A stretch of DNA of 64,000 nucleotides. Source: Sedimentisphaerales bacterium (lineage in GTDB: Bacteria; Planctomycetota; Phycisphaerae; Sedimentisphaerales; SM23-30). The position numbers were made by a program, and so were the translations under genes. The DNA is taken from NCBI GenBank assembly GCA_963666285.1, contig OY762711.1. One strand, written 5' to 3'. Of the stretch, positions 28,696 through 47,000 are shown piece after piece (position 1 is the first letter of the stretch; the number at the start of each line of letters is the position of its first letter). The notes under the pieces are model-generated. The model made no database searches. It was not told the origin of the DNA and saw nothing but the letters and a program-made list of their open reading frames with translations.

Positions 28696-30465
28696 ATGTC
28701 ACGCAGTAAGAAAAAAATGGGCGACATTCTTGTCGAATGGGGCTTAATAGACAAGAAAGAATTAGCAAAAGCAGAAGAAATGGCAGACCATTCGCATCGA
28801 CGATTAAGTGATGTGATAGTTGAAATGGGTCTGGCAGATGAAGATCAGGTAATGAAGGCTTTGGCCCAGCAGTTCGATATGGAATATATCGATCTTGATC
28901 AGCATTCCGTTGAAAAAAGTGCCTTAGAGCTAATACCAGATAAAATAGTACGTGAAAATATTGTGTTGCCATTGGGGCATGAAGGTAACCGCCTGAAGAT
29001 ATTGATTCACGATCCGCTAGATTTAGATATGTTGGATATGCTTCGTTTCAGGCTTAATACCGAGCTGGAATGCTGCTTGAGCCCCAAGAGTAAAATTAAA
29101 CGTTATATTGATACGTTTATGGGTGATAATCTCTCGGCATCAATTGACCAGGAAATCGCGTCAATTGACCAATCAATTGATGCATCGCTGGATAAGTCGC
29201 TGGACTCTTCTATTGACCTTGACAGCCTTGACGCATCAAAGTTAGATGAAGATTCAGCACCAATCGTAAAGCTAATTGGTAAGATAATTGATGAAGCGGT
29301 AAAACTGCGAGCGTCAGATATTCATATTGAGCCGATGGATGATCGTATTCGCGTGCGTTATCGAATAGACGGTGTTTGCGTAGAGCGAGATAATATTCCA
29401 AAGCATTTGCAGAATGTTGTAATGGCACGTTTCAAGATTATGTCGGGAATGGATATTGCGGAAAGGCGAGTTCCGCAGGATGGTCGTATCAAGAAGAATT
29501 GCGGAGGAAAGGATATTGACTTCCGTGTAAGTGCGTTACCAGGTTATCACGGAGAGAGTATTGTACTTCGTATTTTGCGGCCAGATTCGGTTTTGGTTGG
29601 TATCCAGGCTTTAGGTTTCAGTCAGCGAGATTACGATCAGTTCGAGAAGATAATTCGCCGCCCGAATGGTATCTTTCTTGTAACAGGACCAACCGGTTCA
29701 GGAAAAACAACAACTCTATATTCAGCGTTGCAGGTATTGAATCGTCCAGATAAGAAGATAATCACCGCAGAAGATCCAGTGGAATATAACTTTGCCGGTA
29801 TGAACCAATGTCAGGTACGACATGAGATAGGCTTTGATTTTAAGATTATTCTAAGGTCTATGTTACGTCAGGCACCTAATATTATTCTGGTCGGTGAAAT
29901 ACGAGATAAGGAAGTGGCGGATATTGCTATCCAGGCGGCACTAACAGGTCACCTGGTGTTTAGTACACTTCATACGAATGATGCCCCCTCAGCGATTACC
30001 CGTTTGATCGATATGGGAGTAAAACCATTTTTGGTTGCCAGTGCAATCCAGGCGATTATGGCTCAACGTTTGATTCGAGTAATATGTCCGGATTGTAAGG
30101 ACGTTGATCCGAATCCGGATTTGAAGTCTTTGAGGCTGCTTGGATTTTCGGATGATGATGCACGAAACAAGACCTTTTATAAAGGTGTTGGGTGCAAGCG
30201 ATGCCACGGCAGCGGTTATCGTGGTCGAAAGGGTATCTTTGAGATGATGCTGATGAATGGTGAAATACGCGAACTAGCGTTCCAACGTGCACCATCCAAT
30301 AAGATTATGCGTGCGGCTATGGCCAGTGGTATGCTGCCGTTGGTAGAAGATGGCAAGGAAAAGGTTCTCCAGGGAATAACAACACTGGAAGAAGTAGCCC
30401 GTCATGCCCAGATTGAAGGAACAGTTGAAGAGGATATCCTGGTTAACGAAGATGAAGGGATGTAG
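28696..30465 (+). CDS. pilB: PilB/GspE-family assembly ATPase 1
   Basis: MshEN-like N-terminus; ASDIHIEP, GPTGSGKTT, EDPVEY, GHLVFSTLHTND and a CxxC...CxxC zinc motif. Confidence 0.93.
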   Translation: MSRSKKKMGDILVEWGLIDKKELAKAEEMADHSHRRLSDVIVEMGLADEDQVMKALAQQFDMEYIDLDQHSVEKSALELIPDKIVRENIVLPLGHEGNRLKILIHDPLDLDMLDMLRFRLNTELECCLSPKSKIKRYIDTFMGDNLSASIDQEIASIDQSIDASLDKSLDSSIDLDSLDASKLDEDSAPIVKLIGKIIDEAVKLRASDIHIEPMDDRIRVRYRIDGVCVERDNIPKHLQNVVMARFKIMSGMDIAERRVPQDGRIKKNCGGKDIDFRVSALPGYHGESIVLRILRPDSVLVGIQALGFSQRDYDQFEKIIRRPNGIFLVTGPTGSGKTTTLYSALQVLNRPDKKIITAEDPVEYNFAGMNQCQVRHEIGFDFKIILRSMLRQAPNIILVGEIRDKEVADIAIQAALTGHLVFSTLHTNDAPSAITRLIDMGVKPFLVASAIQAIMAQRLIRVICPDCKDVDPNPDLKSLRLLGFSDDDARNKTFYKGVGCKRCHGSGYRGRKGIFEMMLMNGEIRELAFQRAPSNKIMRAAMASGMLPLVEDGKEKVLQGITTLEEVARHAQIEGTVEEDILVNEDEGM

Positions 30466-30574
30466 TAAATATAAATAAAGGATTTTGTAAATATATAACG
30501 TTATTTGAGAGTGACATTCAGATTATCCGGCAGGGCTGTATACAGCCTGCCTGTTAGAAGAGGAAAATAGATTT

Positions 30575-31723
30575 ATGTCTGCCCCACAACCACAACAGCA
30601 GCAGCAACAGAAGATGATTCATATTGACCGTGTTCTTGAAACATGTATCAAGCAGGGCGGTTCGGATATTCATATTGTAACAGGTCGTCCGCCGGTATTA
30701 CGTTTACATGGCGGTCTTCGATCACTGGATACCAAAACTCTGGATTCTGATGATACCCAGGCGATAATGAAGTCGATTACACCGGACCGTAACCAGCATG
30801 AGCTTCAGGAAAGCGGTTCGACAGACTTTGGTTTTGCTTTTGGTGATAAGGGTCGTTTTCGAGTATCCGTGTTTCGTCAGCGTGGCGATATCTCTATTGT
30901 ACTGCGTTTGATTCCTAACCAGCTTTTGAGTTTTGATACAATTGGCTTGCCAGATCAGATAGCCGAGTTATGCCGCAGGCCACAGGGTATGTTTTTGGTA
31001 ACAGGACCTACCGGTTCTGGTAAATCAACTACCCTGGCGAGTATGATTAACTATATTAACGAAAATATCGACCACCATATAATTACTGTGGAAGACCCAA
31101 TTGAGTACTATCATTATCATAAGAAATCGGTAGTAAATCAGCGTGAAATCGGTAATGATGTACCGACATTTGCCGAGGCATTACGTCGTGCACTGCGTCA
31201 GGACCCGGATGTAATTCTGGTAGGTGAGTTGCGAGACTTAGAAACAATTGAAGCTGCGGTAGCTGCGGCAGAAACCGGTCACTTGGTATTCAGTACCCTG
31301 CATACAACAGGTTGCCAGGGAACCATTACCCGTTTGATTGATGCGTTCCCTGTAAACCAGCAGGAGCAGATTCGTGTACAGCTGTCAACTAACCTGATCG
31401 CAGTTTTGAGTCAGACATTATGTAAACGCCGCGGTGGAAAAGGTCGAATAGCCGGTTATGAGTTTATGATGGTAACACCAGCGATATCTAACTTAATTCG
31501 CGAGAATAAGACCTATCGTATTAACTCAGCGATTCAGACAGGTAAGAAATTTGGTATGCAATTAATGGACGATCATCTCTGGGAACATTATACCAAGAAG
31601 ATAATAGATGAGCGAGAGGCACTGGATAAAGCTCGTTATCCAGAACATATGCTAGAGAAGATATCAAAGTTAAAGATGGGTTTATCGTTAGAAGAAGAGA
31701 ATAATAACGCTGAAGAAAAATAA
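30575..31723 (+). CDS. pilT: type IV pilus retraction ATPase
   Basis: SDIHI, GPTGSGKSTT, LRQDPDVILVGE, ETGHLVFSTLHT, AISNLIRE and GMQ. Confidence 0.95.
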   Translation: MSAPQPQQQQQQKMIHIDRVLETCIKQGGSDIHIVTGRPPVLRLHGGLRSLDTKTLDSDDTQAIMKSITPDRNQHELQESGSTDFGFAFGDKGRFRVSVFRQRGDISIVLRLIPNQLLSFDTIGLPDQIAELCRRPQGMFLVTGPTGSGKSTTLASMINYINENIDHHIITVEDPIEYYHYHKKSVVNQREIGNDVPTFAEALRRALRQDPDVILVGELRDLETIEAAVAAAETGHLVFSTLHTTGCQGTITRLIDAFPVNQQEQIRVQLSTNLIAVLSQTLCKRRGGKGRIAGYEFMMVTPAISNLIRENKTYRINSAIQTGKKFGMQLMDDHLWEHYTKKIIDEREALDKARYPEHMLEKISKLKMGLSLEEENNNAEEK

Positions 31724-31790
31724 AGAATCAATATTAATTTGGAACTATAAATAAAAATAACTCGCAAACTGTAGATTTCAGTTTGAGGAT

Positions 31791-33548
31791 TTGATTATGG
31801 CAACAATACCGCCGGTAGAAAAATTAAAAGGTCGTCCGCTTGGCCGTGCATTAATAAAGATGGGTATTCTAACCCGAGATAAAGTGCATGAAGCTCTAAA
31901 TATCCAGAAGTCAGCAAATCGAAAGAACCCCATAGGTCAGATATTACTTGATCTGGGTTATGTGACAGAGAAAGATCTTCGTTTGGCTTTGGCATTTCAG
32001 CTGGGAATGGAATATGTAGATATTGCCAACCTGGACGTACCGGATGAGATAATTAATTTGCTAACAGCGCAAATGGCGATGACATACCGGGTGCTTCCTA
32101 TAGAATATGATGAAGCATCAAACCGCCTGGATATTGTAATTGACTCGTCAGATAATTTTTCAGCTACTGATGATTTACAGACGTTACTGGATTTTCATAT
32201 TCGCGCAATGATTACTGATACCGATGCCTTAGATAATGCATTAAACCGCTATTATGGCGACAAGGTTGAGAGTATCAATGAATTAATAACAGAGCTGACA
32301 GATGATTCATCATTTACCAACCTGGCAGATCGCGGCGCAAGTATAGATCTGAGCGAACTGCGAGAGGCGGCAGATTCGAGCCCGGTAAAAAGGCTGCTGA
32401 ACCTTGTTTTGTTACAGGCGATTCGAGATAAAGCATCGGATGTGCATTTTGAGCCATTTGAAGATGATTTCAAGATGCGTTATCGTATTGACGGTGTGTT
32501 ATATGAAATGGTGCCGCCGCCAAGGCATATTGCAGTGGCAATTGCATCTCGTATAAAGATTATGGCAGAGCTTGATATTGCCGAGCGTCGTCTTCCTCAG
32601 GACGGGCGTATTGCTTTGATGGTACAGGGGCGACCGGTTGACCTTCGTGTATCGGTTTTACCTACAATGTTTGGCGAGAGCGTGGTACTTCGTGTATTGG
32701 ATCAAACACAGGTTGACCTTGATCTTGACAAGTTAGGTTTTCGTGATCGAGATAAAAATACATTGCGTCAGCTGATCCACAAGCCAAATGGTATTGTGAT
32801 TGTAACAGGTCCAACTGGATCAGGTAAAACCACTACTCTTTATTCAGCCTTGAAAGAGTTGAATACTATCGATAGGAAGCTTATTACTACCGAGGATCCG
32901 GTGGAATATGATATTGATGGTATTATTCAGTGTCAGATCAGGACAGATATTGGTTTGACATTTGCTGCATGTTTGAGAAGTATTTTGCGTCAGGACCCGG
33001 ATGTGGTGTTAGTTGGTGAAACTCGTGACCTCGAAACTGCACAGATCGCTATTCAGGCATCGCTGACAGGTCACTTAGTATTTACAACAGTTCATACTAA
33101 TGATGCTCCGAGTACAATTGCTCGTCTGGTTGACCTTGGCGTAGATAACTTTATGATAACGGCGACGGTTGAAGGTATTGTAGGTCAGCGTCTGGTACGT
33201 ACCATTTGTAAGAATTGTCGTACCCCATTCCAGCCATCAGAGGAAATGCTGCTGGAATTGGAATTGACACCAGAAGAGACGTCTGGCAGGCATTTTTATT
33301 ATGGTCGCGGTTGCGATTACTGTAATAACACCGGTTATAGAGGTAGAATGGGTATTTATGAGGTTATGACCATAAATGACGAGATCCGAGAAGCGATCAT
33401 GAATAATGCTTCCTCGTCAGAGCTTCGTGAGCTGGCGATAGCAAATGGTATGACCTCGATGCGTGATGCCGGTATTGCTTCTATTTATGATGGCCAGACA
33501 ACAATTGAAGAGGTTGTCAAGGAAACAGTTCTAGAAGACATGGGTTAA
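31791..33548 (+). CDS. pilB: PilB/GspE-family assembly ATPase 2
   Basis: MshEN-like LG..L...G repeats; Walker A GPTGSGKTT, LRQDPD, HTND and a zinc motif; start may be ATG 31797. Confidence 0.93.
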   Translation: MIMATIPPVEKLKGRPLGRALIKMGILTRDKVHEALNIQKSANRKNPIGQILLDLGYVTEKDLRLALAFQLGMEYVDIANLDVPDEIINLLTAQMAMTYRVLPIEYDEASNRLDIVIDSSDNFSATDDLQTLLDFHIRAMITDTDALDNALNRYYGDKVESINELITELTDDSSFTNLADRGASIDLSELREAADSSPVKRLLNLVLLQAIRDKASDVHFEPFEDDFKMRYRIDGVLYEMVPPPRHIAVAIASRIKIMAELDIAERRLPQDGRIALMVQGRPVDLRVSVLPTMFGESVVLRVLDQTQVDLDLDKLGFRDRDKNTLRQLIHKPNGIVIVTGPTGSGKTTTLYSALKELNTIDRKLITTEDPVEYDIDGIIQCQIRTDIGLTFAACLRSILRQDPDVVLVGETRDLETAQIAIQASLTGHLVFTTVHTNDAPSTIARLVDLGVDNFMITATVEGIVGQRLVRTICKNCRTPFQPSEEMLLELELTPEETSGRHFYYGRGCDYCNNTGYRGRMGIYEVMTINDEIREAIMNNASSSELRELAIANGMTSMRDAGIASIYDGQTTIEEVVKETVLEDMG

Positions 33549-33853
33549 TTAATTAGTTTTGCGTGAGTGGCAGGAGTTTGAGCCAGTATTCACATGAGCT
33601 CGTATTAAGAATAATGTGAAGTTCTGGGCTATTTTTATTAGCTGGACAGCTGGTTTTTTGGGGTGAAAAGAAGTAAAATTGGATAAAAAAACATATAAAT
33701 ACTTGAAAATAAAGAGATAATATAAAAAATAAGATAGATGGTGGGCGTTTTATAGATTGATTGGTATAATCAGTCAAAAGTTAAAGCCGGTATAACCAAT
33801 CCGGTAAATTACGTAGAGAGTTACAAAAAAGCCTGCTTTTCGGAGAAAATACC

Positions 33854-35101
33854 ATGCCTACGTTCAATTATGAAGCAATGGATTCAATGGGCCAGGAAGT
33901 AAAAGACACCATTGAAGCTCTCAGTGCAGATGAGGCACTGAGTAAGATACGTAACCAAGGGCTATATCCTACAAAGGTAAAAGAGAAAGGTGCCCGCCGA
34001 GTAAAGAAAGATAAGATATCAGTTGGAACTGGTCCTAAGAGAGCGCGTGGTACCGGCGGTAAGGTAAAACTCAAGAAACTGACTCAGTTCACACGTCAGT
34101 TAAGTACGCTTCAGGATGCGGGTCTTCCGATCCTTCGAAGCCTTCGAATCCTGGAAGAGCAGCAAAAGCCGGGTGTATTAAAGAAGGTTTGCTGTTCAGT
34201 AGCAGATGATGTAGAAGCCGGTACAACCCTATCTGACGCGATGGCGAAATATCCCAAGTGTTTTAATAACCTGTATTCAAATATGGTAGCAGCCGGTGAG
34301 GCCGGTGGTGTATTGGACCTGATTTTGAACAGGTTGGCTGATTTTATGGAAAAGGCAGCGGCGTTGAAACGAAAAGTAATCGGTGCTATGATCTACCCGA
34401 TTGCGGTACTGACAATCGCTTTTTCTATCGTAATGGGAATTATGACATTTGTAGTGCCAAAGTTTAAGACAATTTTTGCAGATATGGGATCTGAACTTCC
34501 AGGAGTTACCCAGACTTTACTGGATATCTCAGTCTGGATTACTGAACAATATGGTTGGCTGATATTGCTGGGTTCACCATTAGGCCTGATAATGCTAATT
34601 AAGCTACTTCGTCTAAGCCAAAAAGGGCGATATGTTCATGACTCGCTCAATCTTCGTATACCGGTAGTAGGCCAGATATTAGGTAAGACGGCAATTTCCA
34701 GGTTTACCCGAACGTTGGGTACGCTGGTATCAGCCGGTGTGCCGATTCTGGATGCGTTGAAGATTACGGCAGATACAGCCGGTAACGAGGTTTATAAGTC
34801 CGCGATGATGAAGGTTCTGGAAAGTATCCGTCGTGGTGAGACATTTGCCGAGCCTCTGCGAAAAGCCAAAGTTTGTGACTCGCTGGTGACAAATATGATC
34901 GACGTAGGTGAAGAGACAGGTGAACTGGATAAGATGCTGTACAAGATAGCGGATAACTACGATGACGAAGTTGACGTACTTGTAGGTTCACTGGTATCGC
35001 TTATGGAGCCGGTTCTGGTTATTTTCCTTGGTGTAATATGCGGTTTTATCGTAATTGCTTTGTTTATGCCTATGGTAAAGATGATCGAAGACTTGGGTTA
35101 A
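33854..35101 (+). CDS. pilC: PilC/GspF inner-membrane platform protein
   Basis: FTRQLSTLQDAGLP, AGEAGGVLD, AMIYP, GEETGELD and SLMEP. Confidence 0.95.
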   Translation: MPTFNYEAMDSMGQEVKDTIEALSADEALSKIRNQGLYPTKVKEKGARRVKKDKISVGTGPKRARGTGGKVKLKKLTQFTRQLSTLQDAGLPILRSLRILEEQQKPGVLKKVCCSVADDVEAGTTLSDAMAKYPKCFNNLYSNMVAAGEAGGVLDLILNRLADFMEKAAALKRKVIGAMIYPIAVLTIAFSIVMGIMTFVVPKFKTIFADMGSELPGVTQTLLDISVWITEQYGWLILLGSPLGLIMLIKLLRLSQKGRYVHDSLNLRIPVVGQILGKTAISRFTRTLGTLVSAGVPILDALKITADTAGNEVYKSAMMKVLESIRRGETFAEPLRKAKVCDSLVTNMIDVGEETGELDKMLYKIADNYDDEVDVLVGSLVSLMEPVLVIFLGVICGFIVIALFMPMVKMIEDLG

Positions 35102-35219: not shown

Positions 35220-36152
35220 ATGATACGAGGTATTCGTAAAGGATTTACGCTGGTAGAGCTATTGGTGGTGATGGCGATTATTGGCCTACTGGTAGCGATA
35301 GCGGTCCCCGGCTTGAATCTGGCAAAGTTCAAGGCTAAAGAGGGAGTATTAAAGGCAAAGCTTAATACGATTAGTACGGCCTTGGAAAGTTTCAATGGCG
35401 ACCAGGGTTTTTATCCTGCGTCAAGCACATCCAGGACATCGCCGTATGGTGTATGGGACGCTAATGATGATGGAATGGTAAACGTTAATGATTCCGGAGA
35501 CCAAGATGCCTCTATAGTGGATACGGGAGCTCATTTACTGACAAGAGCTTTGATCGGAGCGGATGGTTTAGGTTATCAAAAGAATGGTTTTTATAGAGTT
35601 GGGAATAACGGCCAGCCGGTAGATATAAATAATAACAGTACCGTCCGAACAAATTATCTTGATACTGAGGGTTTCCAGATAGAGCCACTAAGTAATACAG
35701 TGAACCCTAATATAGAAGGTATGGACATGGCCGAAATTAATCGGCAGCTTGGCTTGGAGCTTGATACAACATATAAAGGTTATGGAGATGCTGCCTGGCT
35801 TAATCCTAACAGTGTTATCCGTGATGATTTGACCAGGTATTCTATGCCGATTTTGTACTATAAGGCGAATAAGCGAAATTATTTGATTGCCGGTGATAAT
35901 AACACAGGAACAGGAATATATAATTATAGTGATAATCAGGCGTTTACTGATCCTACTTATATGGAGTTAAGTGCTAGAGAAGTGTTAAATAATTTTGCGT
36001 ATTATATCTGGGATAACAATACTCCCGTGATTACTGATCCAGCAAGTCGTCCATGCAAGAAAGACAGTTTTATACTGATCACGGCCGGTAAAGATGGTCT
36101 GTATGGAACGGCAGATGATATATGCAGTTTTGATTTTAAGACAGGCAAATAA
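35220..36152 (+). CDS. major (pseudo)pilin, GspG-like, with large variable domain
   Basis: RKG|FTLVELLVVMAII class III signal; C-terminal LITAGKDGLYGTADDI. Confidence 0.88.
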   Translation: MIRGIRKGFTLVELLVVMAIIGLLVAIAVPGLNLAKFKAKEGVLKAKLNTISTALESFNGDQGFYPASSTSRTSPYGVWDANDDGMVNVNDSGDQDASIVDTGAHLLTRALIGADGLGYQKNGFYRVGNNGQPVDINNNSTVRTNYLDTEGFQIEPLSNTVNPNIEGMDMAEINRQLGLELDTTYKGYGDAAWLNPNSVIRDDLTRYSMPILYYKANKRNYLIAGDNNTGTGIYNYSDNQAFTDPTYMELSAREVLNNFAYYIWDNNTPVITDPASRPCKKDSFILITAGKDGLYGTADDICSFDFKTGK

Positions 36153-36225
36153 TTTGCCCGATCAGGGTAAAGATTAGTTTTAATAATCAAATAGTTTTAG
36201 GCTATTGATAAAATACGAAGGGTTT

Positions 36226-36657
36226 ATGAAAATGAAAAGTCGCAAAAAAGGTTTTACACTGGTAGAGGTGCTGGTAGTTATCGCGATATTGGCGATAATC
36301 GGTGCCGGAGCTGTTAGTGTAGCCAATAATGTGGTAAAGAAGGCTAAGGTAAACAAGACCAAAGCCGCGATCGCAAATATAGTTTCTGCGGTGGAAGAGT
36401 ATTATCGCGAGACAAAGACTTATCCAGCTAGCCTTTATTCGGATTTGGCGGGTAATCCTAAAACCAGTGTGATTATTGATAAGCTTGACGATGAATTCAA
36501 GAATCAAGACCCAAGTAAAGAATCTCCACTGCGTGACTCCTGGGGTAAAACACTGCATTATCTAAACCGCGGCAATGGCAATTTTCCAAAAATCACATCA
36601 GCAGGTCCGGATAAGGAATTTAATACTGCCGACGATATACTCTCTACCGATCAGTGA
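36226..36657 (+). CDS. GspG-like (pseudo)pilin
   Basis: KKG|FTLVEVLVV; DSWGK.LHY...SAGPD..FNTADDI; ATG 36226 preferred over TTG 36205. Confidence 0.88.
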   Translation: MKMKSRKKGFTLVEVLVVIAILAIIGAGAVSVANNVVKKAKVNKTKAAIANIVSAVEEYYRETKTYPASLYSDLAGNPKTSVIIDKLDDEFKNQDPSKESPLRDSWGKTLHYLNRGNGNFPKITSAGPDKEFNTADDILSTDQ

Positions 36658-36908
36658 TGAAAGTGTTCCGAAATATCTGGAGCATGATTCTGTCCCCAAA
36701 AAGTAAAAAAAAGTTAACTATTTGTGGGCGAAAAGGGTGGTCGGAAGTATAATCTATTAGAGTGAGAAGAATAATCAGTTAAAAAATGACAGGCATGCGG
36801 GATGAGGCGTAAGGGAAGGAAATCCGCATGTAGCGGAAAATTATTTGCTGCAAGGCGGCGGCTTTGCAAAGTGAAAAATGAATAGTGAAAAGTCAAGGCG
36901 TTCGCTTT

Positions 36909-36988
36909 GCTCACAGCTTGTTTTATTGCTAAAGACAAACTGATATAGATAAAAGATTATGATAAAAAGAACAAGACAATCAGGTTTT
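36909..36988 (+). repeat. shared upstream + prepilin leader block, copy 1
   Basis: 73/77 identical to 39640-39716; 33/33 identical to 38090-38122. Confidence 0.95.
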
Positions 36989-38008
36989 ACGATGGTGGAG
37001 ATGGTGGTGGTGGTTGCCATTATTGCCTTGGTATTGGCGGTAGGAATGCCGAATTTGCCAGGTATGCTCCGCAGTAATAAGATGTCAAGTGCTAAGAACC
37101 TGGTAAAGACAGCGCTGGCACAGGCTCAGAGTTATGCCGCGAGCCACAGCAAGTATGCCGGGATTCGTTTTCAGAAAGCGGCTAATGGAAAGACTTACCT
37201 GGTGCTGATCGAGCATGACCCGGTTTTTGATTATAATACCAATCCTGCCGGTGGTGGAGATATAATATCGACAAGGAATCAATACAGGTATGTTGCAATT
37301 CCCGGAGCGAAGCCAAAGGCGTTGCCTGATGGTGTAGGAGTTTTGGATGGTAATATGTATGGGGGGGGGGGGACAGGAGATACTGTATTGATTGATTATG
37401 ATATTTCAGTTGATAATAGTGTTGCCTGTATTGAAAACTATCAGACTTTTTCCATTATCTTTTCACCGACAGGTCAGCTGGTGACCAAGCAAGTTTCAGT
37501 ATATCCACGTTATGATAATACTTTGAAAACGATGGTTGCGTATTTTGATGATCCGGTTAGACCGGGAAATCATATAGGCAGTCAATATAAGGTAAAAACT
37601 TCAGCTTATACCTCATACGGCAGTTATGATACGGTTTATCCTGCGGATTTGATATTTGGTTCTATATTGTATTGCGATCCGGCGAGATACCAGGTAGTTG
37701 CCAATACAACATTAGACAGTGATCTGCTGAACAACCATGACTCACTATTGTCATATGATGCTCATTATGTACCTGAGCTGGGCGACAACAGCTATAATTC
37801 ATATGAATATGATACAGAGCCGTGGTGTTTCCTAGAATCCAGTTCGACGAGTTTTTATATTTATATGGAAAATGAGATGGTAGATGCATCGCCGGATGGA
37901 ACAACGAGGTATAGTAATTTCTTTAATCCATCGGAGGGCGGTTCTGAATATGAAGGGTGTGAATACTATATGCTGAATATGTATACAGGGGATATATTTG
38001 CAGAATAA
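36959..38008 (+). CDS. minor pseudopilin, GspH/FimT-like
   Basis: QSG|FTMVEMVVVVAII; AQAQSYA and IIFSPTG motifs; in-frame G12 tract at 37361-37372. Confidence 0.82.
   Translation: MIKRTRQSGFTMVEMVVVVAIIALVLAVGMPNLPGMLRSNKMSSAKNLVKTALAQAQSYAASHSKYAGIRFQKAANGKTYLVLIEHDPVFDYNTNPAGGGDIISTRNQYRYVAIPGAKPKALPDGVGVLDGNMYGGGGTGDTVLIDYDISVDNSVACIENYQTFSIIFSPTGQLVTKQVSVYPRYDNTLKTMVAYFDDPVRPGNHIGSQYKVKTSAYTSYGSYDTVYPADLIFGSILYCDPARYQVVANTTLDSDLLNNHDSLLSYDAHYVPELGDNSYNSYEYDTEPWCFLESSSTSFYIYMENEMVDASPDGTTRYSNFFNPSEGGSEYEGCEYYMLNMYTGDIFAE
37361..37372 (+). repeat. G12 homopolymer inside a pilin gene
   Basis: Twelve consecutive G (four GGG codons, aa 135-138). Confidence 0.95.
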
Positions 38009-38092
38009 AACAGTCATAAGGCCCGCCTTAGGCGAATCTTCGACATAAGTGAATGTAATCCGTCTGTGGCGGAAAAAGATATAGAAAGAATT

Positions 38093-39535
38093 ATGATAAA
38101 AAGAACAAGACAATCAGGTTTTTCGCTGCTGGAAGTAATGATGGCGGTAGTGGTCATGACGATGGGGATGGTGTTTGTCGCGAGTATGTTCCCGGTTGGT
38201 TTGTATAATGCACGCAAGACAGCGGATGCGACGATGAATGCTATCGAGCTGAATAATTCGGTTGTTTCGGCGGGGCTGGTGGTAGATGCCGCGATTAAAA
38301 CCGGATTGACAGGCCGAGGGAACTGTTTTGAGTTTCGAGATGCCCCTAACGATGTAAATAGTAATGATGTTTATGATAGTGGAAACGGTGAAGAAGGTAA
38401 TCCAAACAGCATTCATTTCCTGATAAAGCCAAATGTTCTGGCTGATTCAGTTGGAACAAATTCGCCGATTGTAGTAGTTGATGATATAGAATATGTACTG
38501 CTTCCAGGTGCCAATCCTCAAAACCAGTTTTGGTACTCAATGAATCCGCCTACTATAGCTTACACAGGTGCACCTTATTCCGGTGCATCGCTATTTATGG
38601 CTACTTATTTTGAAGTCTCTACCACAATAATACCTATTATCGATGGCACCGGAGGTTATTATGACCCATATGATTCAGGTGACTATGTAGATGATTACCT
38701 GTCTCCTGAGCTGACGACAGGTAGTTTTATCGGTGATATAGGTTTTGTTGCCAGTCCGCCGGTGTTTTATACAGATCAGGATGTGTTGGACAGGATAGAA
38801 AAGTTAAGCGGTGATACGCAGGCGGTGAATCTGGCATCAGTAGTGCAGCAGCAGGTTGTAAACCGGGCGGTTTATGATGTAACTATGGAGCGAAATTACA
38901 GTTGGGCGGCATTTTATGAGGGTACGGGCAAGCCTGAGTTTATGTATATTTTCACCTTGAAGAATCACCAGCGGAACGTTCGTTATGCGGTACAAGACCC
39001 GGCCAGTATGGTGTATAATAATCCGGTAGATCCAATATTTGATGGAGATCGGACGACTACGCCAACATATGGCAGTACCGGGCCATTGCCGTATGCTCGC
39101 GGAAGTGCATATGACAGACATTTCCCGGTGCCGTGGCTGGTGCATATGGATGTGCCAAAGGTGAGCGCATTTGCCAGACGTCAGGCTCCATATTATGATC
39201 ATATTTTGTCGGTATCCGCAGAGATAGCAAAGATTCTTCGTCCTGGAAGTATATTGCTTAATGCTGATCCTGATGGAGTAGATTCGCGAGATAGTACTAA
39301 AGTTTATGTAAATCACGATAAAATGATCTATGAGGTTGAAGATGTAGTTCCGATAGACCCGACAGACCTATCGGTCGGTTTTAACGTGATACTGACTGAT
39401 ACACTTGGAGATTCGGTAGATGGTGCCAGTATGTTTGCGTTCTGGGTATTTCCCCCAGCAATAAACCGTGCGACAAATGAGTATGAAGATGAACAGCCGG
39501 TGGTAGATGTAGTTTACCGGAAGGTGGAATGGTAG
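38093..39535 (+). CDS. minor pseudopilin, GspI/PilV-like
   Basis: QSG|FSLLEVMMAVVVM...FPVG; start at ATG 38093 by homology to its neighbours (track start 38066). Confidence 0.82.
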   Translation: MIKRTRQSGFSLLEVMMAVVVMTMGMVFVASMFPVGLYNARKTADATMNAIELNNSVVSAGLVVDAAIKTGLTGRGNCFEFRDAPNDVNSNDVYDSGNGEEGNPNSIHFLIKPNVLADSVGTNSPIVVVDDIEYVLLPGANPQNQFWYSMNPPTIAYTGAPYSGASLFMATYFEVSTTIIPIIDGTGGYYDPYDSGDYVDDYLSPELTTGSFIGDIGFVASPPVFYTDQDVLDRIEKLSGDTQAVNLASVVQQQVVNRAVYDVTMERNYSWAAFYEGTGKPEFMYIFTLKNHQRNVRYAVQDPASMVYNNPVDPIFDGDRTTTPTYGSTGPLPYARGSAYDRHFPVPWLVHMDVPKVSAFARRQAPYYDHILSVSAEIAKILRPGSILLNADPDGVDSRDSTKVYVNHDKMIYEVEDVVPIDPTDLSVGFNVILTDTLGDSVDGASMFAFWVFPPAINRATNEYEDEQPVVDVVYRKVEW

Positions 39536-39689
39536 TTTTAAGTTGTGTATAACACATCTTGAAAAAGTGAAAAAATAATAGTGAAAAGTGAAAGTTAAGG
39601 CGTCCTGATGTATGTTGACATCAGGAATAATTCGCTGTCGCTCACAGCTTGTTTTATTGTTAGAGACAAACTGATATAGATAAAAGATT

Positions 39690-40898
39690 ATGATAAGAAG
39701 AACGAGACAATCAGGTGTGACTCTGCCGGAGATGATGACGGCGGTTGCGATAACGCTGATAATGCTGGCGGCGTCGGGCATGATATTTAGCTCAGCGTCG
39801 AAGTCGTCCGGTAAGGCGATGGCCTTGAACGATATGATGACCGAGGCACGTGCGATAATCGGTCAGCTGGAAAGTGACTTTGCCGGGTATCGGGATGATC
39901 TGCCGATAACGCTGGTGTTTGAAGGTTATGATTTTATTGTCGATTCTAATTTAGATGGTTCTCCTGAATCAGATTACCTGGAAAGGCGAGATCGGGTATC
40001 GTTTTTTACCAACGGTGATTTCCAGGATATGTATGGTAACGGCAGTACTTTGATGGCCCGTGTTTTGTACAGTCAGAGTGGAGATACTGTTAATAACTCG
40101 AATACAGAAATACCCGGAGCCAGTATGGGTATTGCTCCTCTTCAAAGGGCGTTGTGCCGGCAGATGAAGATGATAACTAATAATGATACTAATAGTGCAG
40201 GAGCATATATTAACCCACTTTATGCGGGGAGCCACTATGCAAAAAATTATTGGCAGCAATATGAACTTGAGATATTTGAGTACGGTCCGGAATACCTGTG
40301 GAAGAGTGCAGATAATAACAGCTACTCTTCCAGCTGGTGGCTGTATGAGGATGCATCTGGTACAAGTAATAACATTTCATTCATCAGGCGTCCAGATTAC
40401 GACCTTTTTTACAAACAAGATGTCTTAATAACGAAAAATGCATCATATTCCCTACAAAGGAAAAATCAATATAAGCAAAGAAGCTGTGTAGTAACTGATT
40501 GTACCGATTTTACCGTGCAGGTGTGGATAAAGCCGCCGGGAGAATTTGCGTACAGGTGGTTTCCAACAAACTGGGATTTGGAGATAATGTCTGATTCTAC
40601 AACACGATCATATTGGAATGATAAAAGTAAACTTAATCAGCCGACGCCGTGTATTGGTATAAGCTGGAATATTGATGAGAACCATTTAATGCCGTTTGGA
40701 TATGGCTATTACATCGATGGAAGTATAAAATATCTATTTCCTGATTATCTGTTTCCTGATTATGATCGTACAGCTTTTGCTCCGCCGGAGAAGCCGAAAG
40801 CGTTTAAGTTCACGTTTAAGCTGCATGATAAAGGGCGGACGCATTTTCCTGAGGGTAAGAAGTTCACGTATATAATAGATGTGAGGGATAAGGATTAG
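39690..40898 (+). CDS. minor pseudopilin, GspJ/PilW-like
   Basis: QSG|VTLPEMMTAVAIT; ARAIIGQLESDF; C-terminal PKAFKFTFKLHD. Confidence 0.82.
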   Translation: MIRRTRQSGVTLPEMMTAVAITLIMLAASGMIFSSASKSSGKAMALNDMMTEARAIIGQLESDFAGYRDDLPITLVFEGYDFIVDSNLDGSPESDYLERRDRVSFFTNGDFQDMYGNGSTLMARVLYSQSGDTVNNSNTEIPGASMGIAPLQRALCRQMKMITNNDTNSAGAYINPLYAGSHYAKNYWQQYELEIFEYGPEYLWKSADNNSYSSSWWLYEDASGTSNNISFIRRPDYDLFYKQDVLITKNASYSLQRKNQYKQRSCVVTDCTDFTVQVWIKPPGEFAYRWFPTNWDLEIMSDSTTRSYWNDKSKLNQPTPCIGISWNIDENHLMPFGYGYYIDGSIKYLFPDYLFPDYDRTAFAPPEKPKAFKFTFKLHDKGRTHFPEGKKFTYIIDVRDKD

Positions 40899-41148: not shown

Positions 41149-44100
41149 ATGATGAAAAAGATAGAAATAAAAAATAAACGGGGCAGTACGCTGGTGCTGG
41201 CATTAGTGCTGACGATGGTACTGTTTATAATGGGGATAGCGTTTATCTCTACTACCAGTATTCAGCGTGATATGGTGGAAAATGCTTCTGACGGTCAGTA
41301 TGTAAATGACGGGGTTGATGTTGTAGTATCGAAGATAAAAGAAGTATTGAAGAAGGATCTGTTTGAGGATAAGGCAGGCTATACCGGTTTTCTGCAGGGA
41401 GTGGCCTCTTATGATTACCCGGATGAGAATAATAAATGGCTGGCGAGCCTGACACCGGAAGAAACTTCAGATGATTGGGATAATAATAATTCCAGTGATA
41501 CTTTTTACTGCTGGCCGCGGATAACGGATTTATGGGAGAGGTTTGATTGGGATGTAAAAAGAACACTGGTTGGCACCAGTAATTACTACTGGTTAAATTA
41601 CCATTATGACCCGGACCCGTTTTTTAGGCAGGATAGAAATGGCGATGGGGCAGCGGATTACCCGCAGGCACGGTATTTTCTAAATCCGATGTCATGGCGA
41701 TATATGGTAGAGTGGGATAATGATATACCATGCCGCGTGGTAGAAGATGATGAGTCGATAAGCGATACGCTGCTGGCAGGTGGGGCTGAAGCAGATCAGT
41801 GGCTGAGTGACAGCAATGTTACCAGCGATTTTAATACTTTTTTGAATGGATTAAGTTCAAGAAATAGTTATATTGCCGATCGACTGAATTTGTACCAATC
41901 AGGCTCGAACTGGTATGATAAGGACAATACCAATCAGGCTTATGCACCTGGGTGGTCATTAAAAACTACATATCCAGACAATCCGATTGATAGTGCTGAT
42001 GGTATGCGGGCTGATGCCGATGGTGACGGGGTAGCGGACAGTCGCTGGGTGAGACTTAAGCAGATAAATTCCGAAGGTGATTATCTGTATGCGGCGGTGC
42101 GGATAATAGATAACGGCGGTATGATTAATCTGAATACGGCGTTTCGCAAGCCGGGCCATGCAAATTTTAGTGGAAGTGGGATAAATCAATACTACAATCC
42201 CTACGATGGAAGCTATGTTGATAACACAGGATTATTGAGAGCTGAAGATGCAGAATTAGATAACTGGGATGGCAGCAGTGTTTCACATATAGATGCATGG
42301 AGTTTACTGCGTGGAACAGATATAGATAATGGTTATGAATCTATTATTTTTAATGATATGTTGCATTATAAAACATTTCCATCGGTTGAATATCTTAAAG
42401 ACTATAGTTTTGCGTTGAATCAGGCGGCATGTCCTTATATCAAATATCCAAGAGAATTTGGAGATACTACCAATAATACTTTTGCCTTTGCTGCTTTAGC
42501 TCCTGCATCTGGTACTCCATATACTCTAACTGGTTTTGATTTAAATGATGAGCTGGAGCTTAGAAACAGATTCTTTTTGAGAACTAATGTTAATACTAGA
42601 GTAAAAAATGACTGGCAAGCTACTTATGGCAATCTTGAAAGCGGCTATACTCGAACAAATAAATATGATAACAGTGGTGGTATCTTTTATTATTCTACAG
42701 GTTGGAACTGGTTTGAAAAGGGAGGATTACTGCTGACAGGAGACCCGCCTAACGATATCAGACCAAATGGAAATGATCAATTTTCCCGCCGTTCTATAAC
42801 GACGACGATAAATAAAGACCGTCTGGTAAGGCCGGAATTCAGGTATAGTTCTGATATTTCAGCTAATGATTACAAAGAAGATAATATTGTTGCTAATATT
42901 AGAAATTCAACCAGATATGATCTGGATGAATTTATGAATGGTTTACGCAGATGTAATATAAATGTTAATGCCGATAGTGCAGGTAGTGTGAGCGAGAAAG
43001 ATGGTGATGGCATTGATGACAATATTATAGATTGGGACCATAACAGTTCAACAACAGCAGATCAAGTTGTTTATGATATTATTACATTAAATAATGTTAC
43101 GGCAGCATATTATATGGCAATTAAGAGCATAGATAGTGCTGAGAACGTTAACAATTTGATACGCGATCATTTTGGTGAACATGGAGTCTGGTCTGGTGGA
43201 ACTCCAACTGTATATTCATCGCATGCTTTGGATTATAATACCGAAATGCTGGCAATGCAATTTAAGGCAAATTTTGAAGATTATTTTGATTATAATTCTT
43301 CAGGTGAGGAAGAAACAATAATAGCTCTTGACGGTACTGAATATAAAGACAGCGGGGGGACTGGAAGGAATCATAAGGAAAGGTACTTTGGCTTTGAAGA
43401 TGTCGCAAGAATTGAAGATGATATCTTGTGTATATCGAAAATATCATTTTATAAGATGACGAGTAATCCTGTGTCTGAAGATTCATCATCTGGAGAACCA
43501 AAATTATCAAACGATACATTGTTGCCAAATGGAACATATTTTGCTGTTGAATTATTTAATCCATCAACTTCTTCCAAAGACAGTACTGCCGATATGAAAG
43601 ATTATTATTTGCTTATTCTTGATAATAATAATCAAGTTAAGGAAATGTTTGATTTTAATGATTTTATTGATGCTGCAAAAACTGAATACTATGGTAAAGA
43701 TGGCACAAAAGTTTTGCCAACTGTAGGTGCCGCTGGTGGAAATGATACAGTAACGATATTGTTATATGATTTGACAACTTCGCATACATATGATTCTACT
43801 GTTTCTAATAATGGTTCAAAACAATATGTAGCAGGATCTGCCGCTTATGGTTTTTTGAATACATTTCCTGTTTCAAAACTTGTTTATGAAGCTGGTGAAA
43901 ATAGGGTAGGGACTACTTTCGGCAGCGGAAGCTCAGATATGTTTTTATATATAGATGTGAGGTCGTCTGGTTTACTTGACCCTGTTGAAACCTCTACACA
44001 ACTGAGTATCGACGATAAGATCGTTTTAGTTCGTAAGGGCGGTACTGGCAGCAAAGTTGCAAGCCTATTAACCAATACAGATGATGTTTATCCATGTGAT

Positions 44101-46119
44101 GTAGTGAGTCTGGAAAGTATTCAGCATGCATTTCATGTTTATAAAGAGTTTGAGGTTAAAGAGCAGAGTGCTACCACGAATTATGATGATGCCGTAGATT
44201 TTCTTGATGAAAGATATGAAGATTCTTCAGGTAATTATCAGTCAAGAACTGCTGATAATAAGTTAAGAAATTTTATTCGTAAAACTAACTTTGGTAGTTC
44301 AGAAATACTATTGCCTGCTTATGGTAAATATAACCCTTGGACATTTGAAAGTAGTGTAGCTAATCCTCCGGGAAATACTATGCTTGCCAGAATCAATATT
44401 GAAACGGAAAGAGATAATGTCGAAAATATAAGGTGGTCTTCTCCAGGCACATATGCTTTAAGCGATCCTGACGTTATGTTATTATATGATGATTTGTCTA
44501 TAGGAGTGCATAATATGCTGGGTATGAAAATTGAGGATTTTGATTTACGCCAGTTACATGATAGGTTTTCTATTGCTTCAAATCAATGTTGGTTTAAGAG
44601 CATAGGTCAACTTCAGGATATTTTAGTTGTGGGGGCAAGATATATAGAAGCTGATATAAATAATGACGGCAATTACCCAACTGACAGTACGTTTGCGACA
44701 GGAAGTACTGATGAAATATATTTTCAGCCTTTTATCCATTCGTTGGCTAAAGCAAGACAAGCTAGTGCTGTTAATGGTTATTGTACATATAACAATACAG
44801 AGTTGATAGGTAATCCTGGTCGTATGAATCTAGGTGATGAGCTATTTGCCCGTATACCGGAATTTATGACTGTTATTGATTACAGCAGGGATGGTATCGA
44901 TAATGACGGTAATACTGATAATTTCGAGTTAGCTGCAATATGTGATGATGACATTGATCAGGATACAGACGGTGATGATGATAACACGGCAAATGAAATT
45001 GATGCTGATGAAGTATTACAATATTCCTATTACAATACAGATGGTATAGACCAGGATGGATTTGTTGATAACGTTACAGGTGGTTTGACGAATGCAGAGA
45101 GATTAGATGCAGTTGACCCTGCCAGTGGTTTTGCTGATGAAGCGGAATATATGAAGAGCCGTGTAGGGGAATATGAAGTTGATATATACGGTCGGATAAA
45201 TATCAATACAGCGCCGTGGTATGTAATAGCGAGGCTGCCGTGGGTAACAGAAGAGATGGCGCAAGCTATAGTGGCGTACAGAGATAAAAAAAGACTAGAT
45301 AATACTACGTATTATACTATAGATTCTAATTTAGCTGCTCCTGCTGTTAATTATAGTGTCGGCAGAGCTAATGGAATGTGGGATGCGGTTTTAAATCAGG
45401 CTAAACTTATTTCAATTAATGTACAAGCAATTGCAGAAGCTGAAAATGCACCATTTCAAGTTAGAGAAGAAAGAGGTTTTAGAAGTATTGGTGAGTTGAT
45501 GAATGTTACTCATGGCCTACGGGGACAATATTCTTCCAGTTTTACTACACAGTTGGCTAGAATAGTAAATTCTTTAAGTGATACAGGTAGTAACCCAAGT
45601 GCAACATTTGCAGGTGGATGGCATGAGGTGTTTAATCCAACCAATTCTAAAGAGCTAGGTTTGGTAAGGGGAATTACATATAATAATGCATTTGATATTC
45701 AACGATGGGGCAAGAGGCGTAAACGTCTAGATGCGACAAATCAAACACCTGAAGGTGATTATATGGTTCAAACAGATTCTTCTAATGGTGTAGTAAAGTC
45801 AATTAATGATAATCGTTCGACAGTAGCAAGTTCACTGTCTGGTAGCTGGACTTTAAATGATATTTCGACTGTGACACCTTTTTATGATGATGAGTTTACT
45901 GTAGCAAGTAATGATAATGAATCTAAGCAGGCCATATTCAATAAGATAAGCAACCTGATAACGACGCGCAGTGATGTATTTACGGCGTATATTCTGGTGC
46001 GGGTTGGTCGAGATGGTCCTCAGAGGCGGATGATAGGTATCTTTGACCGTAGTAATGTGTATAGCGGCGATGATGAGGTTAAGCTGCTGGCGTTGTTCCA
46101 GGTGCCGGAGACGCAGTGA
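41149..46119 (+). CDS. giant GspK/PilX-like minor pseudopilin / putative tip adhesin (1656 aa)
   Basis: KRG|STLVLALVL (no Glu5, typical of K/X class); ADADGDGVADS, IIDNGGMINLNTA, GRININTAP...AQAIVAYR..GFRSIGELMNV (HhH-like) and NLITTRSDVFT; many DxDxDG motifs. Confidence 0.8.
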   Translation: MMKKIEIKNKRGSTLVLALVLTMVLFIMGIAFISTTSIQRDMVENASDGQYVNDGVDVVVSKIKEVLKKDLFEDKAGYTGFLQGVASYDYPDENNKWLASLTPEETSDDWDNNNSSDTFYCWPRITDLWERFDWDVKRTLVGTSNYYWLNYHYDPDPFFRQDRNGDGAADYPQARYFLNPMSWRYMVEWDNDIPCRVVEDDESISDTLLAGGAEADQWLSDSNVTSDFNTFLNGLSSRNSYIADRLNLYQSGSNWYDKDNTNQAYAPGWSLKTTYPDNPIDSADGMRADADGDGVADSRWVRLKQINSEGDYLYAAVRIIDNGGMINLNTAFRKPGHANFSGSGINQYYNPYDGSYVDNTGLLRAEDAELDNWDGSSVSHIDAWSLLRGTDIDNGYESIIFNDMLHYKTFPSVEYLKDYSFALNQAACPYIKYPREFGDTTNNTFAFAALAPASGTPYTLTGFDLNDELELRNRFFLRTNVNTRVKNDWQATYGNLESGYTRTNKYDNSGGIFYYSTGWNWFEKGGLLLTGDPPNDIRPNGNDQFSRRSITTTINKDRLVRPEFRYSSDISANDYKEDNIVANIRNSTRYDLDEFMNGLRRCNINVNADSAGSVSEKDGDGIDDNIIDWDHNSSTTADQVVYDIITLNNVTAAYYMAIKSIDSAENVNNLIRDHFGEHGVWSGGTPTVYSSHALDYNTEMLAMQFKANFEDYFDYNSSGEEETIIALDGTEYKDSGGTGRNHKERYFGFEDVARIEDDILCISKISFYKMTSNPVSEDSSSGEPKLSNDTLLPNGTYFAVELFNPSTSSKDSTADMKDYYLLILDNNNQVKEMFDFNDFIDAAKTEYYGKDGTKVLPTVGAAGGNDTVTILLYDLTTSHTYDSTVSNNGSKQYVAGSAAYGFLNTFPVSKLVYEAGENRVGTTFGSGSSDMFLYIDVRSSGLLDPVETSTQLSIDDKIVLVRKGGTGSKVASLLTNTDDVYPCDVVSLESIQHAFHVYKEFEVKEQSATTNYDDAVDFLDERYEDSSGNYQSRTADNKLRNFIRKTNFGSSEILLPAYGKYNPWTFESSVANPPGNTMLARINIETERDNVENIRWSSPGTYALSDPDVMLLYDDLSIGVHNMLGMKIEDFDLRQLHDRFSIASNQCWFKSIGQLQDILVVGARYIEADINNDGNYPTDSTFATGSTDEIYFQPFIHSLAKARQASAVNGYCTYNNTELIGNPGRMNLGDELFARIPEFMTVIDYSRDGIDNDGNTDNFELAAICDDDIDQDTDGDDDNTANEIDADEVLQYSYYNTDGIDQDGFVDNVTGGLTNAERLDAVDPASGFADEAEYMKSRVGEYEVDIYGRININTAPWYVIARLPWVTEEMAQAIVAYRDKKRLDNTTYYTIDSNLAAPAVNYSVGRANGMWDAVLNQAKLISINVQAIAEAENAPFQVREERGFRSIGELMNVTHGLRGQYSSSFTTQLARIVNSLSDTGSNPSATFAGGWHEVFNPTNSKELGLVRGITYNNAFDIQRWGKRRKRLDATNQTPEGDYMVQTDSSNGVVKSINDNRSTVASSLSGSWTLNDISTVTPFYDDEFTVASNDNESKQAIFNKISNLITTRSDVFTAYILVRVGRDGPQRRMIGIFDRSNVYSGDDEVKLLALFQVPETQ

Positions 46120-46129
46120 TTTTAAGCTT

Positions 46130-46431
46130 TGCTTAAAATCAAGTGATGAGTGAAGAACTAATAGTGAAGAGTTAAGGTTGGTCCCGATGAAAACATCGGG
46201 ACCTTTGTATTTTTAAGTATGGTATTATTAAGACAGGTGTCAGTAGGTATTGGGTATTTGGTGTCAGGTATTAGGTAAGGAATTCCGCTGAGAGCGGAAA
46301 ATTCAAATATATGCTTAAAATCAAGTGATGTATGCTTCGCATGTCACATGTGTGGGTGAAGAACTAATAGTGAAGAGTTAAGGTTGGTCCCGATGAAAAT
46401 ATCGGGACCTTTGTATTTTAAAGTATGGTAT
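46130..46431 (+). repeat. tandem ~95-bp duplication with GGTCCCGAT-N6-ATCGGGACC hairpin
   Basis: 46130-46224 versus 46312-46431 (the second copy has an insertion of about 25 bp). Confidence 0.9.
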
Positions 46432-47000
46432 CGTTGAGAAGGTATTGTTGTTATTAGGCAATATCTGTAAGTAACTCAAAGTGACCGATTTCATACTTTT
46501 TTTACCATAACATATTGTAAAAGAATTCTTTATGTTAAAATTATAGCTATTCTGCCTCTTTGCGGCAATCCTTGCCTGATATCCAAGGCATAATAGCTAA
46601 TACCTCTCAAGCCGGTCATCGATAAGTTTTAGCAAGTAATTTCAATCTGAAAAATTGTATACCTCCGGAATTAAAACGTCTATGAGATTATATGTTCTTA
46701 GCCTGTCGGGTTTTATGCAGAAATCTTATATTAAAACAATAATCATGCTGATGGTTTGGTGATTGGGTGGCGGTATGGTTGCCGGAAAGGATCACCAATA
46801 ATATATTTCGTCGGTGTATAAAAATCGTTCGGTTAGTTATAAAATATTGTTGAATTATTAAATGAAATTAGCTAACATCAAATAAATAAGTGAATTTTCG
46901 TATATTGTTTTAATATAATAAGTTACAGTAATAAAATCTCCAAATTGCGAAGAAAAATTACCACTTTTGGACAAGAGTTTTTCTTGGAAAGGTATAGACA

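Follow-up and report, generated by a model that had tools for sequence, protein, structure and literature searches.

Shared start region of three minor pilin genes

The window analysed here, a stretch of 64,000 nt from Sedimentisphaerales bacterium (assembly GCA_963666285.1, contig OY762711.1), carries a pilus operon in which three consecutive genes, encoding minor prepilins of the classes H, I and J, begin with nearly the same DNA. H (FimU-like, 349 aa) is located at 36959-38008, I (PilV-like, 480 aa) at 38093-39535 and J (PilW-like, 402 aa) at 39690-40898; all three lie on the plus strand, as do their start regions and the elements and operon genes described below, and each is a full-length orthologue of the corresponding gene of relatives. 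H and J are identical at 73 of 77 nt (36909-36985 and 39640-39716), including 50 nt upstream of the ATG in both genes (36959 and 39690). The H copy of this block consists of the tail of a dispersed element, a unique spacer, the ATG and the leader codons up to Gly(-1). H and I share an exact repeat of 33 nt (36956-36988 and 38090-38122), and in a gapped alignment the likeness of the I copy continues to 38078, about 15 nt upstream of the I ATG. The leader peptides are MIKRTRQS/G in H and I and MIRRTRQS/G in J, and the identity ends on the right at the Gly(-1) codon for H/J and one codon beyond it for H/I. The repeats are direct, with start spacings of 1,134, 1,597 and 2,731 nt. The original prediction, made from the sequence, had given the same 73/77, 33/33 and 50-nt figures, which proved exact upon re-alignment, and the MI(K/R)RTRQSG beginnings and the end of identity at or one codon after the prepilin peptidase site were likewise recovered in the translations and at the alignment edges. 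Its extent of 77 nt was too short: the shared block reaches back to about 36868 in H and 39565 in J, approximately 120 nt in H coordinates, and the 77-mer begins with 17 nt that form the tail of a repeat found throughout the genome.

The likeness of the three starts is exceptional within the genome and beyond it. Scored backwards from the cleavage site, the three pairs reach 65, 30 and 24, the highest values among the 1,540 pairs formed by the 56 prepilin open reading frames (ORFs) of the genome, the next being 17. With gaps allowed, the scores are 67, 33 and 27 compared to a maximum of 14 in 6,000 cross-genome pairs, and the same three pairs rank first among 2,358 pairs in the 147 related operon loci with at least two prepilins, ungapped or gapped. 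A BLASTN search of the 6.35 Mb genome with the spacer and leader, a check that the original prediction had proposed for the whole 77-mer, returned the H, J and I copies only (E below 0.01). Convergence on a favoured leader peptide might be considered, as endings of the RQS/G type and A-rich codons are common in these leaders. However, the identity covers 50 non-coding nt and all synonymous sites, and convergence cannot yield 50 non-coding nt identical by state, nor a score of 65 where the null maxima are 14-17. For H/I, nine identical codons encoding the same peptide have a probability of about 6e-4 under the leader codon usage of the other 53 prepilins. Convergence is refuted for H/J and, taken together with an error of the assembly, is an extremely improbable source of the shared starts.

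Representation of the repeats in public read contigs

An assembly artefact, which the original prediction had named as a way in which it could fail, was examined in the contigs of three public sequencing runs, of which X1 and X2 belong to one sample and X3, with patchy cover, to another. In X1 and X2 the contigs break exactly at the two exact 33-nt repeats, with a depth of 49-50 for the 33-mers and of 21-29 for the unique pieces. Since the depth of the repeats is about twice that of the flanks, each 33-nt repeat is present twice and the flanks are single-copy, which rules out the artefact. The X1 and X2 contigs show no other letters over 36932-38330, and these runs contain no large sub-population in which H, I or J is missing or doubled. 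Rearranged alleles at high frequency were absent from the X1 and X2 contigs, a view in which rare rearrangements would escape because read contigs drop rare variants, and neither polymorphism nor a conversion intermediate was found in the contigs of X1-X3. The I contig of X3 begins exactly at the repeat, without the upstream DNA of I, a pattern that a molecule with H deleted would produce, as would tip-clipping of a short fragment end, so that X3 is ambiguous with regard to rearranged alleles. A contig joint between 36889 and 39591 was considered as a deletion and rejected, as its 29-nt side together with 13 extra letters has one occurrence at another place in the genome, and the joint is taken for a further copy of the element described below. 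Separately, X3 has one base fewer in a G-run inside H at 37361, a frameshift if real, where X1 and X2 agree with the window.

A heptamer element bounds the block shared by H and J

The repeat to which the first 17 nt of the 77-mer belong is a dispersed intergenic element built of a heptamer run, an AGGTGT core, an optional hairpin of 28 nt, a short stem and a T-run. The genome contains 80 copies with the hairpin and 57 complete copies. AGGTGT is present in 55 of the 57 complete copies, and the remaining two, which carry AGGCGT, are those in front of H and J; among the hairpin copies, the AGGCGT allele occurs in 1 of 80. The element before H (36868-36925) is of the hairpin-less form with the private allele at 36896-36901, and the element before J (39565-39656) contains the hairpin module at 39604-39631 and the private allele at 39598-39603. 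Because the AGGCGT base is common to these two copies alone, the H and J elements evidently share descent. The H/J block would then have been altered after copying by gain or loss of the hairpin module.

Intergenic heptamer repeats near start codons have been described by MacGregor, and these arrays, too, are oriented towards nearby starts (MacGregor, 2015; PMC4679880). The paper also notes that repeats may be tolerated at protein ends. In contrast to those direct repeats, the shared spacer and leader of the window are unique sequence, and the element only bounds the copied block. A remnant of a group II intron with domain V/VI before the ATG was also tried as the source of the start and rejected, as there was neither an Rfam match nor a BLAST match to the intron copies of the genome. 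These intron copies (C1:1407250-1407972 and at least five other sites) give the same MPTRQ start to unrelated genes.

Mature pilins are not exchanged

The identity ends at the cleavage site because the residues just beyond it are conserved by class, with GFTLVEM in H, GFSLxEVM in I and GVTLxEM in J; position +1 is occupied by Phe in H and I, which differ from each other at +2, and by Val in J. H, I and J align over the full mature length with the gene at the same position in 10 relatives, and the phylogenetic trees place them with their orthologues. In profile comparisons between the classes, the N-terminal 27-80 residues alone align, in agreement with the earlier observation that the mature domains lack visible similarity. 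The mature pilins have thus not been exchanged.

The gene order was surveyed in 120 regions from 250/301 genomes of the order with a J match, 20 regions anchored on pilC and 14 metagenome loci, of which one duplicate was dropped; 12 further loci were not counted, being duplicates of genome loci. In 132 of the 151 loci with prepilins, H, I and J each occur once and in this order; 18 are cut by contig ends, and one (G012) has no such block at that place. Duplicated or reordered H-I-J genes were not found among the 151 loci, which were chosen via I, J or pilC matches, so that loss of J is under-represented. In G012 (L009), the operon ends after the second pilin and is followed by unrelated genes, with no match to I or J in that 86% complete genome.

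These data bear on the proposal, part of the original prediction, that recombination between the repeats would delete, duplicate or swap whole mature pilins in frame. Homologous recombination requires a minimum homology of about 25 bp, which the direct repeats of 33 and 77 nt exceed. Two further observations might be taken as signs of a programmed system, namely the I contig of X3 that starts exactly at the repeat and a mosaic J in two close strains of a relative, in which H is identical at 355 of 356 residues, I at 503 of 508 and J at 280 of 418. However, X3 is patchy and tip-clipping would explain its pattern, and the J mosaic begins near residue 115, well outside the leader. A junction placed in the cleaved leader does not alter the mature pilins, so that crossovers could only delete or duplicate needed subunits and could not bring about the envisaged in-frame swap. 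There are no silent cassettes, the repeats are direct and not inverted, and no recombinase family was found among the window ORFs of at least 90 aa (6 of 28 ORFs in one family search had no Pfam match). With the depth of X1 and X2 even and neither swap, duplication nor single-gene deletion seen in the loci surveyed, this part of the original prediction is not supported, and a system using the repeats as programmed sites is very unlikely. In the strain pair (J P0063/P0064, H P0002/P0072, I P0073/P0045), J is identical to about residue 115 and then about 55% identical, which represents an allele replacement of the J globular domain between P0063 and P0064.

Age, direction and spread of leader sharing

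In three congeneric genomes (G001-G003) the three starts differ from one another, the best anchored score being 10 (I/J). Metagenome and genome scans revealed no lineage closer than G001/G003, and no DNA of relatives was detected at 80% likeness over the H and I starts in X1-X3. Protein searches reached closer relatives at 54-68% identity. One of these lineages has MRNKTRQS in I and MINKTRQS in J, which are alike within the genome and unlike the (K/R)RTRQS of the window, and another has MNKRTRQP in H but MIHKNRQY in I; G003 J has MFNKTRQS, and six more distant H proteins end in Ala and not Gly at the leader end. The leaders of the closer relatives thus seem to group by genome and not by orthologue, a pattern supported by these peptides. 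Together with the identity at non-coding and synonymous sites and its absence from the three congeneric genomes, this grouping bears out the claim of copying or gene conversion between ancient paralogues. That leaders are more similar within a genome than between orthologues, which the original prediction had proposed to test, holds against G001-G003, against 146 other loci and for the peptides of the closer relatives, but was not borne out across the order. The order-wide anchored means within and across genomes are 2.26 and 1.79 for H/I, 1.25 and 0.69 for H/J, and 0.98 and 0.65 for I/J with the window genome included; once it is set aside, the scores differ only slightly, and order-wide concerted evolution is not shown.

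Since only four differences are present in 77 nt, the last copying event is far younger than the splits from these relatives. By parsimony, NKTRQS is ancestral in J and KRTRQ in H is older. This makes H, tentatively, the more probable source of the last copies in I and J, made once the nearest lineage had branched off. Earlier copying from J in the lineage is possible, again tentatively, and the copying was probably repeated and not a single event. J as the last donor, suggested by the G003 J leader, was dropped given the leader peptides of the closer relatives.

A shared start could also be kept by selection for equal or co-regulated translation of H, I and J. The shared DNA spans the translation start, and the three subunits are predicted to function in one tip complex (PMC7248040). 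However, the start is not shared in G001-G003 or in nearly all of the 147 loci, the K-like prepilin gene following J is excluded from it, and an Rfam search of the shared block gave no match. Folding compared to shuffles yielded a z of 0.05 for the H region, -1.6 for the I region and -3.1 for the J region; a structured RNA was rejected, as H folds no better than shuffles and the J signal is the hairpin of the element. Selected co-regulation is consequently a quite unlikely explanation.

Start-only repeats and repeat-built leaders elsewhere

The next-best pair of the related loci, with a score of 26, belongs to G089 (L143), whose H has a J-type MKK/A leader and about 50 nt of shared upstream DNA starting in a repeat. 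The H genes of five relatives of family f4 that were inspected have mostly long basic leaders, unlike G089 H, and the G089 H/J pair is, judging from these sequences, probably an independent copy event. In the window genome, a search for direct repeats of 40-400 nt with at least 85% identity and a distance of 0.3-8 kb gave 139 local cases, of which only two cover just the starts of two genes: the H/J block and a permease pair (C1:5796792-5796960/5799493-5799660; L167:793-961 and L167:3494-3661). The latter belongs to two 24%-identical membrane proteins of a GntR/ABC transporter operon; they have 169 nt in common (92%), starting at a heptamer array and reaching codon 15, with copies 2,701 nt apart, and a third paralogue lacks the shared start. 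Because the permease pair shows the same anatomy, sharing confined to the start is not specific to pilins.

Period-7 repeats between the ATG and Gly were present in 25 of 681 testable prepilin leaders from 18 genomes (e.g., L051, L054, L055, L080), mostly in J and I, compared to 0-3 for other periods; a looser test gave 37 of 878. In at least seven loci (L063, L071, L082, L133, L147, L047, L099), cassettes encoding a four-helix-bundle (TIGR02436) or GxxExxY (TIGR04256) protein with repeat arms sit between pilin genes. That relatives write their leaders as 7-base repeats and have cassettes between pilin genes supports the view of leaders as nearly free sequence. In L133 and L147 the four-helix-bundle ORF continues in frame into J, and in L063 an internally deleted cassette precedes another pilin. 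The window differs from these loci in that no such ORF lies between its pilin genes, and its element is an empty copy.

It is conceivable from these parallels that the heptamer/hairpin element is itself mobile and takes along its 3' flank (spacer, start codon and first codons), which overwrites the start of a neighbouring gene. Both start-only repeats among the 139 have a period-7 array at their beginning, two of the nine four-helix-bundle genes listed from this genome follow an element of the same type, and the arms of the cassettes in relatives form leaders. However, no further copy of spacer and leader exists in the genome, the copies being local (2.7 kb), the old H start was replaced and not pushed upstream, and in I the leader stands without an element before it. 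Elements of this kind are, in addition, common between genes here, and adjacency is expected. We regard element mobility as unlikely.

Origin of the shared starts

The preferred explanation, to which we assign a probability of roughly 0.7, is that the start DNA of H, I and J was copied by local non-reciprocal recombination and survived only up to the cleavage site, since the leader is discarded and the mature helix is class-specific. What is observed is the common DNA with both its edges, mature genes that have not been swapped, and the private base that links the two elements. The process would be gene conversion, or an equivalent duplication followed by deletion, between neighbouring pilin genes. 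The H/J tract may have begun in, or included, the two same-strand element copies 2.7 kb apart and would have ended on the right at the conserved Gln-Ser-Gly codons. Selection would remove tracts that enter the mature N-terminal helix, and deletions between the repeats would be purged, as core minor pilins would be lost. H could have been the last donor to I and J after earlier copying from J to I and from J to H, with an outcome that was presumably near neutral and became fixed. The locus is most likely a neutral evolutionary scar and not a switch.

Several points weigh against this explanation. No element of the family is found in front of I, and the H and J elements differ by the 28-nt hairpin module and by heptamer units, which calls for an extra event. 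Neither an intermediate, a polymorphism nor a reciprocal product was seen, and the data do not separate conversion from duplication-deletion or from copying driven by the element. The closer relatives were compared as proteins only, grouped into genomes by inference; the H leader of the nearest lineage and the J leader of the other lineage are missing from the gene calls, and the trees do not settle the branching order of the window genome and two closer relatives for H and I. Finally, RQS/G-like leader endings are common across the order, which weakens the case for the older events and for their direction.

Ectopic gene conversion and concerted evolution are known between paralogous bacterial genes, e.g., the tuf and rrn copies. 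The locus shows three features of such conversion, namely likeness within the genome, sharp edges with orthologous flanks, and identity at silent and non-coding sites; for the fourth, a non-reciprocal donor, the direction is read from peptides only. It differs from conversion of the tuf/rrn type in that the partners are different subunit classes without alignable globular domains, and in that the tract, bordered on the left by a dispersed repeat, covers only 5' untranslated DNA and the cleaved leader. As a clean natural case, it shows how far a conversion tract reaches between ancient paralogues, taking in untranslated DNA and a disposable leader and no class-specific codon further. It supports prepilin leaders as interchangeable, nearly free sequence, suggests that dispersed heptamer elements seed such exchanges, and cautions that similar leaders say little about pilin class. 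A broader proposal is that the elements act as portable anchors that transplant "gene heads", consisting of the ribosome-loading region, the start and a cleavable leader, between diverged genes of exported proteins; leaders would then evolve in concert and the translation starts of tip subunits would be coupled while the mature proteins stay unchanged. We hold this extension to be unlikely. A description of leader-only conversion among minor pilin classes was not found in the literature searched, mostly at the level of titles and abstracts and without supplements.

Comparison with pilin variation systems

The Neisseria pilE/pilS system (PMC4023411, PMC2188307) has gene conversion among pilin genes in common with the locus; in that system, partial cassettes that are themselves silent frequently alter the major pilin in its mature part. 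Silent leaderless cassettes are absent here, as H, I and J are complete ORFs with start and leader and single-copy orthologues, and there is no alteration of the mature pilin, as the identity stops at the cleavage site and the mature parts are orthologous. The tfpQ/tfpI inversion of Moraxella and the shufflon of IncI1 plasmids use inverted sites and an adjacent recombinase to provide alternative mature parts. The locus resembles them in having short repeats at pilin gene junctions, but it has direct repeats, the search of the window ORFs turned up no recombinase, and the products of H, I and J are all required at once. The locus gives no indication of a novel switch or system of variation.

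The pilus operon and neighbouring features

The operon comprises, in this order, a pilB-like ATPase gene, pilT, a second pilB-like ATPase gene and pilC (28696-35101), two pilin genes (35220-36657; G1 35220-36152 and G2 36226-36657), H, I, J and a K-like prepilin gene (PilX-like, 1,656 aa, 41149-46119). The leaders of G1 and G2 are not homogenised with those of H, I and J, and the K-like prepilin, which lacks Glu at +5, likewise has a leader of its own. H, I and J carry the PF07963 prepilin cleavage/methylation motif above the cut-off, and the curated class families gave weak matches below their cut-offs only (GspH, PilX_N, T2SSK); the class names accordingly rest on position and weak profile matches. 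As regards the labels GspH, GspI and GspJ of the original prediction, PilT passes its curated cut-off (TIGR01420, 449.5 bits, cut-off 319.1), so that the operon fits a type IVa pilus carrying equivalents of FimU, PilV, PilW and PilX better than a type II secretion system. The type IVa core minor pilin operon FimU-PilV-PilW-PilX (equivalents of GspH-I-J-K) has the same four consecutive prepilins, the last without Glu5, beside pilB, pilT and pilC, and in model systems every core minor pilin is required for piliation, with the leader removed by the prepilin peptidase (PMC7248040). The subunits of the window differ from it in being much larger (349-1,656 aa) and in falling below the curated family cut-offs.

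The K-like prepilin measures about 1,070-1,720 aa in the family and about 450 aa in other families; it contains a helix-hairpin-helix motif at residues 1348-1380 and inserted parts without a Pfam match. A GTATAAT motif lies 60-250 nt upstream of H in the window (36745-36756) and in the family members L005, L014, L016, L018 and L038, and upstream of K in L016 and L020. It is possibly an internal promoter; a promoter scan gave 21 sites versus 15.7 +/- 4.3 in shuffles and was uninformative. Downstream of K, a direct repeat of 87 nt (93%), with copies 206 nt apart at 46147-46233 and 46353-46439, consists of two element copies, each with a GTCCCGAT hairpin.

Two further patterns were noted elsewhere in the genome. 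Contig C1 contains about 30 dispersed prepilin-like genes of 220-325 aa in which the mature start is almost invariant (FTLIELLVVISIIALLVSILM) and the leaders are unrelated, the opposite of the pattern at the H/I/J locus. Tandem arrays of exported proteins of about 200 aa (C1:563370-565480 and 1514062-1516105; C4:40619-41950) have near-identical ends, intergenic DNA and signal peptides and diverged middles.

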